DNA of 64,000 bases, taken from positions 256,001 through 320,000 of the forward strand of contig OZ252243.1 in NCBI GenBank assembly GCA_965249555.1, given 5' to 3'. Of this stretch, positions 14,108 to 19,788 are shown in pieces. Each line of letters opens with the position of its first letter. The first letter of the stretch is position 1. This DNA comes from Nitrosopumilus sp. (lineage in GTDB: Archaea; Thermoproteota; Nitrososphaeria; Nitrososphaerales; Nitrosopumilaceae). A program made the position numbers and the translations under genes. The notes beneath the pieces were generated by a model. The model worked only from the letters and a program-made list of their open reading frames with translations. It did not search any database and was not told the origin of the DNA.

Positions 14108-15121
14108 TTAAAGATTATCAGTAATTGCTTTAGTAAACTCTACAGTACTCATTGTACCGCCAATATCCTTAGTTTTAGAGCCTGATTTTACCAAATCAAA
14201 GATGGTAGATTCTAATTTTGCACCAACCTTAATGCATTTTGAGTCATTATGTTTGGTACCAAGCCAATCAAACATCATTTTTATAGATAACAAAAACGAC
14301 GATGGGTTTGCAATGTTTTTCCCTGCAATATCAAATGCTGCACCATGTACTGGCTCAAAAAGTGCAAAGTTATCTCCAATGTTAGCAGCTGGTGCCATCC
14401 CTAAACCACCTACTACTTGTGATGATTCATCAGATAAGATATCTCCAAACAAGTTTGTAGTTACAATAACATCAAATTGTTCTGGCTGACGGATTAAATT
14501 CATTGCACATGCATCAACATACATTTGCTCAAATGTGATATCAGGATAATCTTTTGATACATCAGTACAAGCTTGGGCAAACAAACCATCAGTAACTCGC
14601 ATTACATTTGATTTGTGAACACAAGTTACTTTTCTCATAGAGTCACGTTGCATTGCAGTCTCAAATGCATACTTTGCAATTCTTTTAGAAGCTGCCTCTG
14701 AAATTACCCTTAATGCAACTGCAGAATCCCCCACACGAAACTCTTGGCCTCGATAAAGATCCTCTGTATTTTCTCGAACTATCACCATATCAATATCATC
14801 ACGCAATGCTGGCATGTGTGGATACGATTTTGCAGGTCGAATGTTCGCATAAAGATCAAGCATTCTCCTTAACACCACAACAACATCAGCTGCTGATTCT
14901 CCAACAGGAGCTTTCAAGCATGCATCAGAGTCCTTTATGATATTAACTGTCTCATCAGGAAGGGGATTTCCAGTAATTTCAAGTGCTTTATCACCGGCTA
15001 ACAATTTAGTTATTTCAAATTTCAAATCATATTTCTCATTTATTTTATTAAGTACAGAAACCGCAGAATCTGATATTTCAGGGCCAATCCCATCACCAGT
15101 AATTAATGATATTTTATACAT
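14108..15121 (-). CDS. leuB: 3-isopropylmalate / isocitrate-family dehydrogenase
   Basis: GDGIGPE, VRENTED, NLFGDILSD, EPVHGAAFDIAG; adjacent to leuA and ilvBN. Confidence 0.85.
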   Translation of the reverse strand: MYKISLITGDGIGPEISDSAVSVLNKINEKYDLKFEITKLLAGDKALEITGNPLPDETVNIIKDSDACLKAPVGESAADVVVVLRRMLDLYANIRPAKSYPHMPALRDDIDMVIVRENTEDLYRGQEFRVGDSAVALRVISEAASKRIAKYAFETAMQRDSMRKVTCVHKSNVMRVTDGLFAQACTDVSKDYPDITFEQMYVDACAMNLIRQPEQFDVIVTTNLFGDILSDESSQVVGGLGMAPAANIGDNFALFEPVHGAAFDIAGKNIANPSSFLLSIKMMFDWLGTKHNDSKCIKVGAKLESTIFDLVKSGSKTKDIGGTMSTVEFTKAITDNL

Positions 15122-15456
15122 GGTGTCTCATCACAATAAGAGAATATAATGTCACCTTCATTTTCAATCAAGGGAGTGGGTGAAAAGAGTGTTCTGCCAA
15201 TCAGATACTGTCTACAAATAACGTGAGCGATTAGTAAAGTCAGCACTTCTTTGTGCTGTAATTTGTAGCCAAATTTGTTCAAATAGTTTTTGAGATATAC
15301 TATACTTGATGACTGAAGCAAGACAGGCAACCAGACAGATTTTACATCCTACTTTAACCTATGTTGCAGTTGCCTCTTTTTTTGTTGTAGTTTCAGCAGT
15401 CCTAATTCGTTGAGTTTTTCAGATTCTAAACTCTGCAAATTATCTTTATTTTTTTA

Positions 15457-16971
15457 CTAGCTTACCTGTTTTTCTTTTAACATCTTTTTGAGCATAATTC
15501 TATTTATTCCATCAATGACTGCTTGAACACTTGTAGTTACAATATCCTCACCAACTGATTTTGCAGAAACTTTATTTCCTTGTGCATCCTCTACACTAAT
15601 GGTTACTTCACATAATGCATTAGCACCACCAGAAATTGATGCCAATGCATAGTCTTTAATTCTAATTTCCGAAATTTTTCCAGTAATCTTTTGAATTGCA
15701 TTAAGTGATGCATCAACAGGACCAACACCGTGATCAGTTCCTGAATACTCTTTTCCATCAATAGTTAATTTTACAAATGCATAAGGCATTGTTCCAATTC
15801 CAGTGGATACTGAGAATCCAGTTAACTGTACAATTCGTTTAGTTCCTTCATCACCTAAAACATCACTTGCAATGGATAACAACTCTACATCTGAAATTTG
15901 CTTTCCTTGATCACCTAACACCTTAACTTTGTCTAGGATTTGTTGTGATTGTTCTTCATTTGGTTTTACTCCAAATTCTGCAAGCATTGCATTCATTCCA
16001 TGAATTCCTGCATGTTTTCCAACACGAAGTAGTCTCTTTCGTCCTACTAATTCCGGACTGATTGGCTCGTATGTTAATGGATTATTCAACACTCCATGAG
16101 TGTGAATTCCGGATTCATGTCCAAATGCATTATCTCCAACTATAGCCTTGTTTGGCTGTACTTTGATGCCTGCAATCTTCGAGACATATCGTGATGTATC
16201 ATAGATTAATTTAGATTTGATGTTTGTTTCATATTTTTGCTCAAATGGCAAACATTGCAATGCCATGGAGAACTCTTCTAATGATGCATTTCCTGCACGC
16301 TCTCCAATTCCATTAATGGTAACATGTGCACATGCAGCTCCTGCATGAATTCCAGATAATGCGTTTGCAACTGCTAATCCAAAGTCATTATGACAATGAA
16401 CACTGACTGGAAGTTTTGTTACATCAACTGTATCACGAGTTAATTCTGCCATATACTCAGGGGTACAATATCCCACAGTATCAGGAATGTTAACCCTATC
16501 AGCTCCGGCTTTTGCTACTTCGCCAAATACTTTTTTTAAGAATTCTCTATCAGTTCTAGTTGCATCCTCAGCTGAGAACTCAACTTGGAGGCCACGAGAT
16601 TTTCCATATTCTACTGCTTCAATTGCTTTTTCAAGTGCTTGATCACGAGTCATCTTGAGTTTATGTTCCAAATGAATGTCGGATGTTGCAATGAATGTGT
16701 GAATATAGTTTAGTCCTGCATCAACTGCAGAATCAATATCTTTTTTGATAGTTCTAGTTAGTCCTGCAATCTCACATGATAATCCTTCGCTAGTAATCAT
16801 CTTAACTCCTTTGAATTCACCTTCTGAAATTACAGGAAATCCTGCCTCTATTGCATCAACTCCAAGTTCGTCAAGTTTTTTTGCAATAGATAATTTTTGA
16901 TCAGGTGATAATGAAACACCAAGTGTTTGTTCTCCATCTCTTAATGTTGTATCAAATATTCTAACTTTCAT
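15457..16971 (-). CDS. leuA: 2-isopropylmalate synthase (LeuA/CimA family)
   Basis: DTTLRDGEQ, HCHND, GERAGN, HESGIH, regulatory domain GVGPVDA. Confidence 0.9.
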   Translation of the reverse strand: MKVRIFDTTLRDGEQTLGVSLSPDQKLSIAKKLDELGVDAIEAGFPVISEGEFKGVKMITSEGLSCEIAGLTRTIKKDIDSAVDAGLNYIHTFIATSDIHLEHKLKMTRDQALEKAIEAVEYGKSRGLQVEFSAEDATRTDREFLKKVFGEVAKAGADRVNIPDTVGYCTPEYMAELTRDTVDVTKLPVSVHCHNDFGLAVANALSGIHAGAACAHVTINGIGERAGNASLEEFSMALQCLPFEQKYETNIKSKLIYDTSRYVSKIAGIKVQPNKAIVGDNAFGHESGIHTHGVLNNPLTYEPISPELVGRKRLLRVGKHAGIHGMNAMLAEFGVKPNEEQSQQILDKVKVLGDQGKQISDVELLSIASDVLGDEGTKRIVQLTGFSVSTGIGTMPYAFVKLTIDGKEYSGTDHGVGPVDASLNAIQKITGKISEIRIKDYALASISGGANALCEVTISVEDAQGNKVSAKSVGEDIVTTSVQAVIDGINRIMLKKMLKEKQVS

Positions 16972-17450
16972 GATCCACTCCTTTGCAATGCCGCAACTCC
17001 AGTTCTGGCTATATCAATAATGCCAAATGGTTTTATCAATTCCTCAAATGCTTGGATTTGATGAGGAGTTGCAGTCAATTCTACCATAAGTGACTCTTTT
17101 TTCACATCATGTACTTTTCCACCGTATGCATTAACTATCTTGTTAATCTCCATGCTATCATTAGCATTGCTAAGCTTTATCATAAAAAGACATAGTTCGC
17201 GGTATACTGTTTTGTGCTCATCTAATTGCCTGACTTCTACTGTATCAATCATTTTTTCGAGTTGTTTTACAATCTGTGCAACTCGCTTTTCATCACTATT
17301 AGTAGTAATAGTAATCCTGGAATAATCTGGATTCTCAGTTACCCCTACTGAAATACTATCAATGTTAAAGTTCCTAGATCTGAAAAGATGAGTTATCTTA
17401 AACAAGATTCCAGTTTTGTTTTCAACTAAAAGAGAAATAATCGCCCACAT
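16968..17450 (-). CDS. ilvN: acetolactate synthase small subunit
   Basis: ACT domain VENKTGIL..FRSRNFNIDSISV; ARTGVAAL. Confidence 0.95.
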   Translation of the reverse strand: MWAIISLLVENKTGILFKITHLFRSRNFNIDSISVGVTENPDYSRITITTNSDEKRVAQIVKQLEKMIDTVEVRQLDEHKTVYRELCLFMIKLSNANDSMEINKIVNAYGGKVHDVKKESLMVELTATPHQIQAFEELIKPFGIIDIARTGVAALQRSGS

Positions 17451-17459
17451 AATTAATCA

Positions 17460-19172
17460 CTATGATGGTAATATCATATCCTCAAGCGAAGTTCCAGGAG
17501 CTACAAATGGTAATACATCTTCTTCAGGGTCAATTGGAATATCAATTACAGTTGCAACATCACTTGATAATGCAGCTTTGATTGCTTTGTCAAGCTCATC
17601 CATTGACTGCGCTCTAATTCCTTGAGCTCCATATGATTCAGCTAGTTTAACATAATCAGGAATATGACCTTGGTCTACTCCAATCATTCTTCTTTTATAG
17701 AATGTTCTTTGCCATTGTGCCACCATCCCTAATGTGTAGTTATTTAAGATAAACACGATTACTGGAATGTCTTCTTGAATAGCAGTTGCAAGGGAGTTTT
17801 CAGTCATTGCAAAGCTTCCATCCCCTGCAATATCCACTACAGGGACATCAGGACGTGCTACTTTGGCACCAATTGATGCTGGAAATCCCCAACCCATAGT
17901 GCCAAGTCCAGTCGAACTAAAGAAAGTGCCAGGTTGAATTACATCATAAAATAATGATGCCCACATTTGGTGTTGTCCTACTTCAGTAGTTACGATAGCT
18001 TCTGGAGGTAATAATTCACGGAGTTTACGTAAAATTTTTGCAGCGCCCATTTCACCTGGATGAATTTTCAAGTTTTCTTTCCAGTATGCTTTTGTCTCTT
18101 TGACATGTTTAATCCAAGTAGACTCTTCAGTTTTTTTGATGACTCTCTGTAAAAGTAATTTTATCATTATTCGAAGTGATGCTTTGACATCTCCAACTAC
18201 TGCAACCTGAGCTGTTTGATTTTTACCAATCTCTGCAGGATCTACATCCATGTGAATGATTTTAAGCCTCTTTTCAAATGCTTCAAAGGTTCCAACTGAT
18301 CTATCAGAGAATCTAGTGCCTATTGCCAACACACAATCAGCTTCTGTCATCATTTTGTTTGCCTCTGCATGTCCATGCATTCCAATTGGCCCTAATGATA
18401 AAGGATGGTTTTCAGGAAATGCGCCCTTTCCTTTGAAAGTAGTAACTACTGGAAGCATAAGCGTTTCAGCAATAGATTGTAATTCAGCAAATGCAGACGA
18501 GATAATAGTTCCGCCACCAGCTAAGATGATTGGTTTTTCTGAATTAAGTAACATATCAATTGCTTTTTCACATGCTGCAATATCAGGATCAGCCCAAGGA
18601 TGATAACCCTGAATTTTAAATTCATCAGGAAATTCCATCTCTGCTGTTCCTGTTTGAACATCTTTTGGAATATCAATAAGTACAGGTCCGGGTCTGCCAG
18701 TCTCTGCAATGTAGAATCCTTTTCTTACAGCTTCTGGAACTTCACCAGGTGTTCTTGGCTGAAATGCATATTTTACAACAGGATTTGACATTCCAATAAT
18801 ATCACTTTCTTGAAATGCATCTCGGCCAATCATATTTACTGGTACTTGGCCAGTTACTGCAATCATTGGTGCAGAATCAGCTTGAGCTGTTGCAATTCCA
18901 GTTAGTATGTTAGTGGCACCAGGTCCTGATGTTGCAAAACAAACACCTGGTTTTCGGCTTACTCTACCAAACCCATCAGCCATATGAGATGCTGACTGTT
19001 CATGTCTTGCCAAAATATGTCTAATATCACATCTAGCAAATTCATCATACATTGGAAGATTGGCACCTCCCGGTAAGCCAAACACTTGTTTGACGCCTTC
19101 TTTTTCCATAGCCGTCATCAAGGCCTTTGCACCTGTCATAGTTTCCATTTTATTTATCAAATCAATCGCCAT
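17460..19172 (-). CDS. ilvB: acetolactate synthase large subunit (start may be 19148)
   Basis: FGLPGGA, RHEQ, TSGPGATN, GDGSF TPP motif. Confidence 0.97.
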   Translation of the reverse strand: MAIDLINKMETMTGAKALMTAMEKEGVKQVFGLPGGANLPMYDEFARCDIRHILARHEQSASHMADGFGRVSRKPGVCFATSGPGATNILTGIATAQADSAPMIAVTGQVPVNMIGRDAFQESDIIGMSNPVVKYAFQPRTPGEVPEAVRKGFYIAETGRPGPVLIDIPKDVQTGTAEMEFPDEFKIQGYHPWADPDIAACEKAIDMLLNSEKPIILAGGGTIISSAFAELQSIAETLMLPVVTTFKGKGAFPENHPLSLGPIGMHGHAEANKMMTEADCVLAIGTRFSDRSVGTFEAFEKRLKIIHMDVDPAEIGKNQTAQVAVVGDVKASLRIMIKLLLQRVIKKTEESTWIKHVKETKAYWKENLKIHPGEMGAAKILRKLRELLPPEAIVTTEVGQHQMWASLFYDVIQPGTFFSSTGLGTMGWGFPASIGAKVARPDVPVVDIAGDGSFAMTENSLATAIQEDIPVIVFILNNYTLGMVAQWQRTFYKRRMIGVDQGHIPDYVKLAESYGAQGIRAQSMDELDKAIKAALSSDVATVIDIPIDPEEDVLPFVAPGTSLEDMILPS

Positions 19173-19204
19173 AATTTTAATGAAGTTAAAATTTTAAGCA
19201 CACT

Positions 19205-19264
19205 TTACAGTAGAACAACAACTTGCAAATTCTTGCTAACTGATCCGATTATTTCTGTGCTCAT
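19205..19264 (-). CDS. putative branched-chain amino acid leader peptide (19 aa)
   Basis: MSTEIIGSVSKNLQVVVLL*; 9 of 19 codons are Ile/Val/Leu; lies between a TATA-like box and ilvB. Confidence 0.55.
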   Translation of the reverse strand: MSTEIIGSVSKNLQVVVLL

Positions 19265-19292
19265 TGAAATCAAAAACAAAACCAATTGATAA

Positions 19293-19300
19293 TTAATAAA
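19293..19300 (-). promoter_or_regulatory. TATA-like box for the uORF-ilvBN-leuA transcript
   Basis: TTTATTAA on the minus strand, about 29 nt before the uORF ATG (leaderless-type spacing). Confidence 0.45.
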
Positions 19301-19383
19301 GATTCCCAGAAAAATAATCGTTATTTTGCCTAAATTGTACAGAAGACTTAAACTGATTATTTTCATATTTCAAACTGACTGTT

Positions 19384-19788
19384 TTGATAGATAGTGAAGA
19401 AATCATAAAAATTATCGAGACATTATTTCAAGCTGGAGTAACAAAAGATCTAGCTAAACTAAAAGAGATACATCTTGATGATTCTAGATTTTCAAGCTTT
19501 AGTGATTTGCCACCATATGATCTTAAAGACTATCAAACTACAATAGAATTAGAAGAGTTACGATTCATTAGCATTTCAGATTATAGTTATGAAATCAAAA
19601 ATCCCAAAATCAGTATTTTTGGGAATACTGCAATTGTGGCATTAGAGTTAATTCAGCAAGGAATGCTAGTAGATAACAAAGCATTCACAGGAGAGCACAT
19701 GAAAATTAAGGGACGTGCAACATTTGTTTTAGTTAAAGAACCAACATGGAAAATTGCACACATTCATCTCTCAAAGATTGAAGGGTAG
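19384..19788 (+). CDS. SnoaL/NTF2-like (DUF4440) protein
   Basis: PKISIFGNTAIV...GRATFVLVK..WKIAHIHLS. Confidence 0.8.
   Translation: MIDSEEIIKIIETLFQAGVTKDLAKLKEIHLDDSRFSSFSDLPPYDLKDYQTTIELEELRFISISDYSYEIKNPKISIFGNTAIVALELIQQGMLVDNKAFTGEHMKIKGRATFVLVKEPTWKIAHIHLSKIEG

Follow-up and report, generated by a model that had tools for sequence, protein, structure and literature searches.

We analysed a window of 64,000 nucleotides (nt) from the archaeon Nitrosopumilus sp. (assembly GCA_965249555.1, contig OZ252243.1, positions 256,001 to 320,000), the genome of which is a single contig of 2.23 megabases (Mb) with 34% G+C. A 19-codon open reading frame (ORF) on the minus strand, located upstream of ilvB-ilvN-leuA and called here the upstream ORF (uORF), probably encodes the leader peptide of a cis-acting, ribosome-dependent attenuator of these genes that would sense leucine (Leu) and valine (Val), and we give this reading a probability of roughly 0.55. 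The conservation of the uORF among relatives goes beyond chance, and together with the coding periodicity of its end, the conservation of its promoter, the RNA helices around it and the enrichment of T-runs after its stop codon it forms the support for the attenuator.

Read along the minus strand, the sequence holds a TATA-like box, the uORF, an inverted repeat made of A and T only, and ilvB-ilvN-leuA, in this order. An earlier reading of the same stretch, the initial annotation, had pointed to this region, and all of its coordinates were found to be correct when the minus strand was read again. The uORF runs from the ATG at 19264-19262 to the TAA at 19207-19205 (ATG AGC ACA GAA ATA ATC GGA TCA GTT AGC AAG AAT TTG CAA GTT GTT GTT CTA CTG TAA), and codons for Leu, isoleucine (Ile) or Val (L/I/V) make up six of its last eight (LQVVVLL).

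19205..19264, minus strand: leader ORF (uORF) of 19 codons and TAA, MSTEIIGSVSKNLQVVVLL, from the sequence, the ORF list and conservation statistics
19208..19222, minus strand: putative sensing codons GTT GTT GTT CTA CTG (Val-Val-Val-Leu-Leu), the last five sense codons, from the sequence

In the ORF list the same frame stays open upstream to an ATG at 19366, which would give a form of 53 amino acids (aa). This longer form was rejected, as few relatives have long forms and it would span the conserved TATA box.

The evidence that carries the proposed function comes mainly from the 5' regions of ilvB in related genomes. Thirteen named loci (L001-L013, from Nitrosopumilus, Nitrosarchaeum, Nitrosotalea, Nitrosotenuis and other Nitrosopumilaceae) served for reading only, and the counts were made over 110 loci in 42 genus-level groups. 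The genus of the window supplied 30 of these (L081-L110, the window being L081), 23 further genera of the same family supplied 60 (L111-L170), and the remaining 20 (L171-L190) are from 17 other families of the order. Three genera of the family (g27, g29 and g31) and three unpublished genomes were left out of the sampling. Under a fixed rule, ORFs of 9-45 codons starting with ATG and ending at most 140 nt upstream of the ilvB start region were scored by the number of L/I/V codons among their last eight, with 200 dinucleotide shuffles per locus and the antisense strand as null models. A score of at least 6 was reached by 64/110 loci, compared to 1.0 expected from the shuffles and none on the antisense strand. 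With the threshold set at 5 the count was 80/110 (5.4 expected, 8 antisense), and with the threshold set at 7 it was 29/110 (0.1 expected, 0 antisense). The counts by group are safer figures because related sequences are not independent, and a member scoring at least 6 was present in 31 of the 42 groups (20/24 genera of the family and 11/18 groups from other families of the order). The in-frame ATG and the stop are retained also across lineages whose nucleotide sequences no longer align. Outside the order, the same rule gave a score of at least 5 in none of 62 distant ilvB loci from bacteria and Methanosarcinales-type archaea (65 were collected, and three were dropped for too little upstream sequence or no N-terminal match). 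For a second outgroup, 34 loci were taken from another 20 families of the phylum; 33 of them were scored, and of these none reached 6 and one reached 5. Conservation of the frame and of its branched-chain amino acid codons in relatives, the check that the initial annotation had itself proposed, was clearly positive.

The composition of the tail points in the same direction. In the last eight codons of one representative per group (35 groups), Leu accounts for 49%, Val for 22% and Ile for 8%, together 79%, compared to 23% for the three amino acids in the called ORFs of this genome; the representatives were picked by a score of at least 5, and these percentages therefore describe the feature and are no independent test of it. 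The Ile/Val/Leu bias described in the initial annotation can be kept for Leu and Val, with Ile in a minor part. In the same representatives, T occupies codon position 2 in 80% of the tail codons, compared to 18% and 24% at positions 1 and 3, and as judged from sequence this three-base periodicity is a coding signature, not a signature of RNA structure. The rest of the leader peptide varies widely between relatives and the L/V/I-rich end is constant, as in MSTKLTTKFGKELPVVILL, MTKVDSTSISSILLQVELVL, MTIYSSTAPTVLLLVELVL, MNEHGNTTSLVELLLLVVLLD and a peptide ending in SLILVIILLL.

Short frames of other kinds were seen before ilvB elsewhere in the phylum. In L200 and L201, from one family outside the order, an open frame that ends in LVIVVILK or VNVVILK and has no in-frame ATG is followed immediately by a strong hairpin (GCGCCTTAAG...CTTAAGGCGC), then by the Shine-Dalgarno-like GGTGAG and ilvB, and the element may extend beyond the order via a non-ATG start. 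L211, L215, L217 and L218, which represent three other families of the phylum, share a conserved mini-ORF of another type, 51-84 nt upstream of the start region of ilvB. Its peptides are MSGGTLQVH, ...DQTLQVH, MGGYTLQVE and MIGGYTLQV, each closed by a stop codon, with the nucleotides ACCCTCCAAGT in common. This TLQV-type mini-ORF may represent a second type of ilvB leader, or else a motif in the RNA.

The putative leader is preceded by a promoter-like block, and its position is conserved together with the ORF.

19289..19305, minus strand: promoter P1, block GAATC-TTTATTAA-TTAT, with the TATA-like box TTTATTAA at 19293-19300, the box starting 36 nt upstream of the uORF ATG
19265..19271, minus strand: GATTTCA, putative very short 5' untranslated region (UTR) and region of the transcription start site (TSS), (nearly) invariant columns in 18 aligned Nitrosopumilus loci

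Most genera have the P1 block at an unchanged distance, and other families have it as TTTATAAT; the motif upstream of the uORF ATG in most genera reads (A/G)NAATCTTTAT(T/A)AAT. A TATA-like heptamer starting at -40..-28 from the uORF ATG is present in 62/80 uORF-bearing loci and 26/35 groups, and its position has a mode at -36/-37 (34 loci), compared to 0-3 loci at other positions. The TATA-like box that the initial annotation had drawn is thus conserved at a fixed distance from the ATG. Genome-wide, the starts of TTTA[AT]A peak at -29..-31 from the ATGs of presumably leaderless genes with free upstream regions, and since the box of the leader lies at -36, the 5' UTR of the uORF would be about 5-7 nt long. 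The conservation of GATTTCA matches such a short 5' UTR, and the TSS is likely to be located just upstream of the uORF, the position that the initial annotation had called for.

Some promoter tools were of no use here. A promoter matrix built from the presumably leaderless genes was informative solely at the TTTA[AT]A hexamer by which its training set had been chosen, and it scored P1 and the two A/T-rich boxes downstream of the uORF (box 1 and box 2, below) alike. A scan for sigma-70 promoters and terminators was set aside as inapplicable to an archaeon.

The RNA of the leader is constrained as well, and the following elements were recognised.

19256..19263, minus strand: 5' arm of helix 1, UGAGCACA, made of the UG of the start codon and codons 2-3, from RNAalifold on 18 loci
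19195..19202, minus strand: 3' arm of helix 1, UGUGCUUA, beginning 3 nt past the stop codon, from RNAalifold, covariation and an alignment-free test
19225..19236, minus strand: helix 2, a small hairpin in the uORF (GCAA-GAAU-UUGC; GGCAA/UUGCC in most relatives), from the 18-locus alignment
19188..19195, minus strand: box 1, AAAATTTT, abutting helix 1, with the T-run 19188-19191 as candidate termination site, from the sequence and the alignment

With the 18 Nitrosopumilus loci, RNAalifold gave a single helix, in which GAGCAC at the start of the ORF pairs with GUGCUC just past its stop. When this helix 1 is extended to eight pairs, six of the eight have changes on both sides, and 84% of the cells pair compared to 24-46% with slid partners. 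In the window, the stop is followed by AG, by TGTGCTTA (19202-19195) and then by AAAATTTT (19195-19188), and helix 1 is followed by AAAAUUUU. For the alignment-free test, a segment of 22 nt spanning the start was paired with the 16 nt following the stop, and the best helix without gaps was compared with a null of shuffled 3' segments, which gave p = 0.017 for the window (L081) and p <= 0.05 in 19/80 loci. The arms themselves differ between lineages: they are TGAGCACA/TGTGCTCA in g1, g25 and g38, GACCACA/TGTGGTC in g24 (there within the 5' UTR), GACTGAT/GTCAGTC in g48, GGGCGC/GCGCCC in g37 and GAGTGTA/TGCACTC in L117, and the 3' arm is followed by TTTT(T) after 2-4 nt. As the helix is kept with differing arms, the RNA is structurally constrained as one molecule, from just 5' of the start codon to a point about 12 nt beyond the stop. 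Helix 2 has five pairs, two of them with double changes and 85.5% of the cells paired; the window forms four of the pairs.

A T-run of at least four within 32 nt of the uORF stop was found in 41/80 loci, compared to 17.5 expected from shuffles, and in 17/35 groups, mostly in the family. A more compact form of the leader is present in 13 loci of five other genera, where RNAalifold gave one helix within the ORF (UCGAC/GUCGA) and a second hairpin, formed by the last Leu codon together with the stop and the bases 3' of it; this hairpin is followed by a T-run of 3-6, by GGAG or GGTGA and, 7-10 nt further on, by the ilvB ATG. The same compact pattern is seen in L004-L006, L011 and L013 (Nitrosotalea, Nitrosotenuis and relatives). 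Because just the hairpin, the T-run and the Shine-Dalgarno-like sequence precede ilvB, the compact form leaves no space for a second promoter. Co-transcription of the uORF and ilvB is thus implied by the sequence in the compact-leader genera, and it is in doubt in Nitrosopumilus owing to box 2. In other families of the order a strong hairpin begins at the stop or immediately behind it, and in 10/15 groups its z against shuffles is about -2 to -4. Searches against Rfam 15 gave for positions 19050-19450 of the window just four sub-threshold chance matches to unrelated families (expectation value E 2.2-6.2), and for nine related loci one sub-threshold match (E 0.25).

The leader also stands out within its own genome. 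Among 1642 short ORFs of 8-40 codons that end at most 160 nt upstream of called genes, nine have at least six L/I/V codons in the last eight and two of these nine have a TATA-like box, and the ilvB uORF alone combines the L/I/V tail, the TATA box and a downstream gene of amino acid biosynthesis. A scan of the genome for upstream short ORFs rich in any one amino acid (histidine, tryptophan, threonine, cysteine and others) gave scattered matches, none of them linked to biosynthesis genes, the his, trp and thr operons not having been located individually.

From these elements the attenuator could work as follows. Transcription would begin a few bases upstream of ATG 19264 from the TATA box at 19293-19300, and a ribosome would load on the nearly leaderless AUG during transcription. 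When charged transfer RNAs (tRNAs) for Leu and Val (and Ile) are plentiful, the ribosome would complete the ORF and depart, the freed 5' end (19263-19256) could pair with the post-stop bases 19202-19195 in the helix that covariation supports, and a short transcript would terminate at AAAATTTT. When these tRNAs are scarce, the ribosome would stall on GTT GTT GTT CTA CTG and cover the stop region and the 3' arm, so that no helix forms and the polymerase would read into ilvB. In the compact form, the stalled ribosome would mask the 5' arm instead of the 3' arm. The Nitrosotalea/Nitrosotenuis-type relatives would thus follow the same logic in a compact arrangement with no second promoter, in which leader ORF, hairpin of the last codons and stop, T-run, Shine-Dalgarno-like sequence and ilvB follow one another. 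In Nitrosopumilus, some ilvB mRNA is probably made independently of the uORF, as a basal supply from the second TATA-like box located 32 nt upstream of the ilvB start, and given this basal supply the attenuator would modulate expression and not gate it.

How the putative leader is joined to ilvB depends on the start of ilvB and on the short A/T-rich segment before it.

17460..19148, minus strand: ilvB, acetolactate synthase large subunit, probable start ATG 19148 (M9), from Pfam and start-codon conservation
ATG 19139 (M12) and ATG 19172, minus strand: alternative ilvB starts, in-frame ATGs
19173..19193, minus strand: A/T-only inverted repeat, AATTTTAA (19193-19186)-N5-TTAAAATT (19180-19173), abutting ATG 19172
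19169..19180, minus strand: box 2, TTAAAATT + ATGG (ATG 19172), a possible second TATA box (P2) or read-through start context, with invariant columns

The long form of ilvB (17460-19172) contains three TPP-enzyme domains according to Pfam, and the TPP_enzyme_N domain begins at residue 12 of this 570-aa form. Among the 110 loci, an in-frame equivalent of ATG 19148 is present in 94, of ATG 19139 in 96 and of ATG 19172 in just 34, and in several relatives a stop closes the frame after the equivalent of 19172. For these reasons ATG 19172, which the initial annotation had placed at the right coordinate, is doubtful as the ilvB start, and the true start is probably ATG 19148. From the uORF stop the distance is 32 nt to ATG 19172 and 56 nt to ATG 19148.

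The inverted repeat appears as a hairpin in the minimum free energy prediction for the window, and 88.9% of its cells pair in the 18 loci. As all of its pairs are A-U and none covaries, an RNA hairpin and a DNA site look alike here, and in some relatives it is not preserved as a repeat. Its 3' half stands at a constant distance of 32 nt from the conserved ilvB start and is preserved in relatives that have no uORF, and it may therefore be a second promoter or a protein-binding site and not part of an RNA hairpin. Box 2, which contains this half, is present as TTAAAATT or a close variant in 59/110 loci, starting 32 nt before the M9 ATG in 41 of the 59 and 33-36 nt before it in 18, irrespective of the intervening reading frame. 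It is retained in relatives without the uORF, including G+C-rich genomes, in which it is conspicuous (L111, L113, L133, L134, L149 and L150); in the uORF-less members of the genus it reads TTTTAAAT, which is nearer the usual TTTAAA of the genome. The compact-leader genera have no box 2 and a Shine-Dalgarno-like sequence instead. The simplest reading is that box 2 may be a second TATA box, giving a near-leaderless ilvB mRNA. An ATG follows it in 54/59 loci, either in frame with ilvB or opening an ORF of 7 codons whose end is 0-4 nt short of the ilvB ATG, which counts against a purely promoter role, and this pattern could be a by-product of the conserved AATAAAATGG context after 1-nt indels.

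Five loci of the genus of the window (L086, L087, L089, L091 and L092), from genomes of 0.7-1.4 Mb, have neither the uORF nor its promoter. Their box 2 is TTTTAAAT(T) or TTTTAAAA(T) in place of TTAAAATT, and three of the five have a stop that closes the frame of the first ATG, which suggests that the leader was lost and the proximal promoter strengthened together, perhaps in one event.

The behaviour of box 2 also lends itself to an explanation that separates the uORF from ilvB altogether. The uORF would then be part of a separate small gene or small RNA that has a promoter and a terminator of its own, ilvB would be transcribed from box 2 with a DNA-binding regulator (e.g. of the Lrp family) at the inverted repeat, and the uORF would be a relic or have some other role. 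We consider this rather unlikely, even if the fixed distance of box 2 to the ilvB ATG, its survival without the uORF, its more usual sequence in the uORF-less members of the genus and the missing Shine-Dalgarno-like sequence before ilvB in the window all fit it, and even if the own TATA box, helix 1 and the T-run would make up a self-contained transcript of about 85 nt. A relic would lose its ATG, frame, stop, Leu/Val tail, promoter and covarying helix, but these are kept in at least 16 genera that have box 2. For a conserved protein function the peptide has too few residues and varies too much, and in this genome the unit was found solely before ilvB. Additionally, no covariation is seen in the inverted repeat that would bind the regulator, some relatives do not retain it as a repeat, and the promoter matrix did not tell P1, box 1 and box 2 apart. 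It is highly improbable that the region is a non-coding structured RNA (a riboswitch or a protein-binding element) with an incidental ORF, or a chance frame in an A/T-rich spacer. Conserved helices are present and the ORF of the window by itself is unremarkable in a genome of 34% G+C, but against this reading stand the T at the second position of 80% of the tail codons, the in-frame ATG and stop in lineages that cannot be aligned, and the 64 loci found compared to 1.0 from shuffles and zero from the antisense strand, and no Rfam family matches.

Another possibility keeps the sensing of Leu and Val by the uORF and moves the regulation after transcription, so that the response would lie in how ilvB is translated (through re-initiation at ATG 19172 or ATG 19148, or because the start region is opened) or in the stability or processing of the leader RNA. 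The other families of the order have the strong post-stop hairpin and T-runs of at least four in just 3/15 groups, and therefore intrinsic termination is disfavoured there. The ATG after box 2, in frame or opening the 7-codon ORF near the ilvB ATG, would suit termination-reinitiation, and the uORF start codon lies in helix 1, which could for this reason limit repeated initiation. Still, we find this explanation quite unlikely. In a thermodynamic model with a ribosome-sized block on the uORF tail, the accessibility of the ilvB ribosome-binding region went up in 7, down in 4 and stayed unchanged in 24 of the 35 groups; as there was no consistent direction, purely translational control is not favoured, and a model of translational sequestration was rejected. 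The stop abutting the ilvB ATG is explicable by the conserved context mentioned above, and the uORF stop itself is 32 and 56 nt away from the two ATGs at which re-initiation would take place.

The transcriptional attenuator that we favour has difficulties of its own, and the following points weigh against it. In the window the T-run consists of four T, with AAAA between it and helix 1. The leader of the window folds no better than its shuffles (z = -0.40) and the local post-stop hairpins in Nitrosopumilus average z = 0.02 against theirs, and the structural case in this genus is thus a case from covariation alone. No antiterminator was found, as RNAalifold on two alignments gave helix 1 alone, or helices A and B, and none was seen by eye. 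The initial annotation, which had noted no terminator/antiterminator pair, was right as to the antiterminator; a terminator-like pair is absent just locally, and the long-range helix 19263-19256/19202-19195 covaries. The general view is that archaeal RNA polymerases stop at oligo-T and do not require a hairpin, which makes the role of the helix uncertain, and the kinetics by which stalling would lead to read-through are not derivable from sequence alone. Among RNA sequencing runs none contained more than 0.14 of the sampled words, and the metatranscriptome contigs obtained from four runs come from relatives about 90% alike and span several genes on both strands; they carry no start, end or strand information and speak neither for nor against the attenuator. 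For Streptomyces coelicolor, which has a similar ilvB leader, changes of candidate regulatory codons are reported to have had no effect (PMC1262725). With regard to the genome as a whole, no L/I/V-rich leader was found upstream of its ilvC, ilvD and three aconitase-family (leuC-like) genes. In the genus, the fixed spacing of box 2 and its survival without the uORF mean that ilvB may be transcribed independently of the uORF, and a read-through transcript of the window would have no Shine-Dalgarno-like sequence before ilvB. Finally, the uORF is absent in several relatives within the family; such losses fit a dispensable regulator, yet they show that the expression of ilvB does not require it.

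Attenuation by leader peptides is textbook knowledge for bacteria, and it needs coupled transcription and translation. In the enterobacterial attenuators (ilvBN, ilvGMEDA, leu, his, trp) a leader ORF with codons for the end product precedes the operon, as it does here, and the position of the ribosome is thought to decide the downstream structure. These systems have a terminator/antiterminator pair (regions 1-4) and a Shine-Dalgarno-led leader; here no antiterminator was found, and the stalled ribosome itself would have to block the helix. The antiterminator defines the classical enterobacterial type, not the pyrBI-like type or the overlapping type of actinobacteria. In Escherichia coli pyrBI there is likewise no antiterminator, and the ribosome translating the leader ORF into the terminator physically blocks the hairpin. 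The signal of pyrBI is polymerase pausing that depends on uridine triphosphate, not tRNA charging, and the system is bacterial. The leader peptide of Corynebacterium glutamicum is reportedly made without a ribosome-binding site, according to the title of Morbach et al. 2000 (cited in PMC13158618), which would parallel the near-leaderless uORF proposed here.

Leaders with similar content are found before ilvB in actinobacteria, where short ORFs with Ile/Val/Leu runs overlap terminator hairpins that are followed by poly-U (PMC1262725, PMC10272879). The Corynebacterium ilvB-II, ilvB-OMG and Leptospira ilvB motifs, all of them bacterial, have been reinterpreted as uORFs (PMC10272879). The leaders of Corynebacterium (ilvB-II), Mycobacterium and Streptomyces are alike with ours in the Ile/Val/Leu-rich ORF before ilvB, the hairpin and the U-run. 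The present case differs in its archaeal host, in a promoter of the TATA/TFB type, in an RNA polymerase that follows other termination rules, and in having no sequence similarity and no Rfam match to them. In Nitrosopumilus, moreover, a long-range helix between the 5' end and the post-stop bases stands in place of a local terminator stem, and a second promoter-like box precedes ilvB. The leaderless polycysteine short ORFs of mycobacteria (bioRxiv 10.1101/834739) are also reported as the first cistron of a biosynthetic operon with one codon class enriched and are proposed as amino acid-responsive attenuators; they differ in being bacterial and in sensing cysteine.

The genes around the leader were assigned with Pfam as follows.

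16968..17450, minus strand: ilvN, acetohydroxyacid synthase (AHAS) small subunit, 9 nt downstream of ilvB
15457..16971, minus strand: leuA, 2-isopropylmalate synthase, with a 4-nt overlap with ilvN
14108..15121, minus strand: leuB, 3-isopropylmalate dehydrogenase, 335 nt 3' of leuA
19384..19788, plus strand: SnoaL-like gene, divergent

The spacer between the divergent SnoaL/DUF4440-like gene and ilvB is 211 base pairs (bp) long, and it holds both the promoter of this gene and that of the leader; the gene has a TTG start and an A/T-rich box about 26-30 nt upstream. In the gap between leuA and leuB, a plus-strand ORF of about 34 codons (15306-15413, ATG 15309) runs antisense to the leu genes, and its translation, judged by eye, suggests a hydrophobic C-terminal half. 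Elsewhere in the genome, a G+C-rich hairpin (GGGGGAAGCGTTTGTCTTCCCCC) lies about 45-90 nt upstream of ilvD (match 1993281-1994234, minus strand) in an A/T-rich spacer, and it could terminate the preceding gene or have a regulatory role. A near-identical upstream element (hexamers such as CACGCA at -67..-60) is common to about 22 called genes, and tandem small genes at about 2,136,000-2,153,600 are each preceded by the same short ORF, MRHMTGIMWD...; the tandem array and the shared upstream element look like a repeated gene family or cassette.

To our knowledge, no case of leader-peptide attenuation has been described in archaea. Full-text searches, in a collection with few subscription journals and without supplements, gave no leader-peptide attenuator in any archaeon and no such ORF in ammonia-oxidising archaea. 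What we propose would thus carry a regulatory logic of bacterial type over to an archaeon, where another structure would serve it. A wider claim can be put forward only tentatively, as possible rather than probable: this may be the first ribosome-dependent leader-peptide attenuator known in Archaea, and an ancient one, already there when the lineages of the order diverged from their common ancestor and retained by most of them. Whether the 5' end pairs with the post-stop bases, and by this whether RNA polymerase stops at a short U-tract, would be decided by a pioneer ribosome on a mini-ORF with almost no 5' UTR, a way that bacteria do not use, and in the Nitrosopumilus-type genera the device would be stacked on a basal second promoter.

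For practical purposes, the analysis flags an unannotated small ORF, moves the likely start of ilvB from 19172 to 19148 and offers a sequence rule for searches in metagenomes. In case the attenuator is real, archaea too would use the ribosome as a sensor of amino acids, by a device conserved order-wide in ammonia oxidisers. The system would also provide a natural test bed for how the termination of archaeal RNA polymerase depends on RNA structure and on a trailing ribosome, and it would explain how the synthesis of Leu and Val is tuned in these abundant, streamlined nitrifiers.

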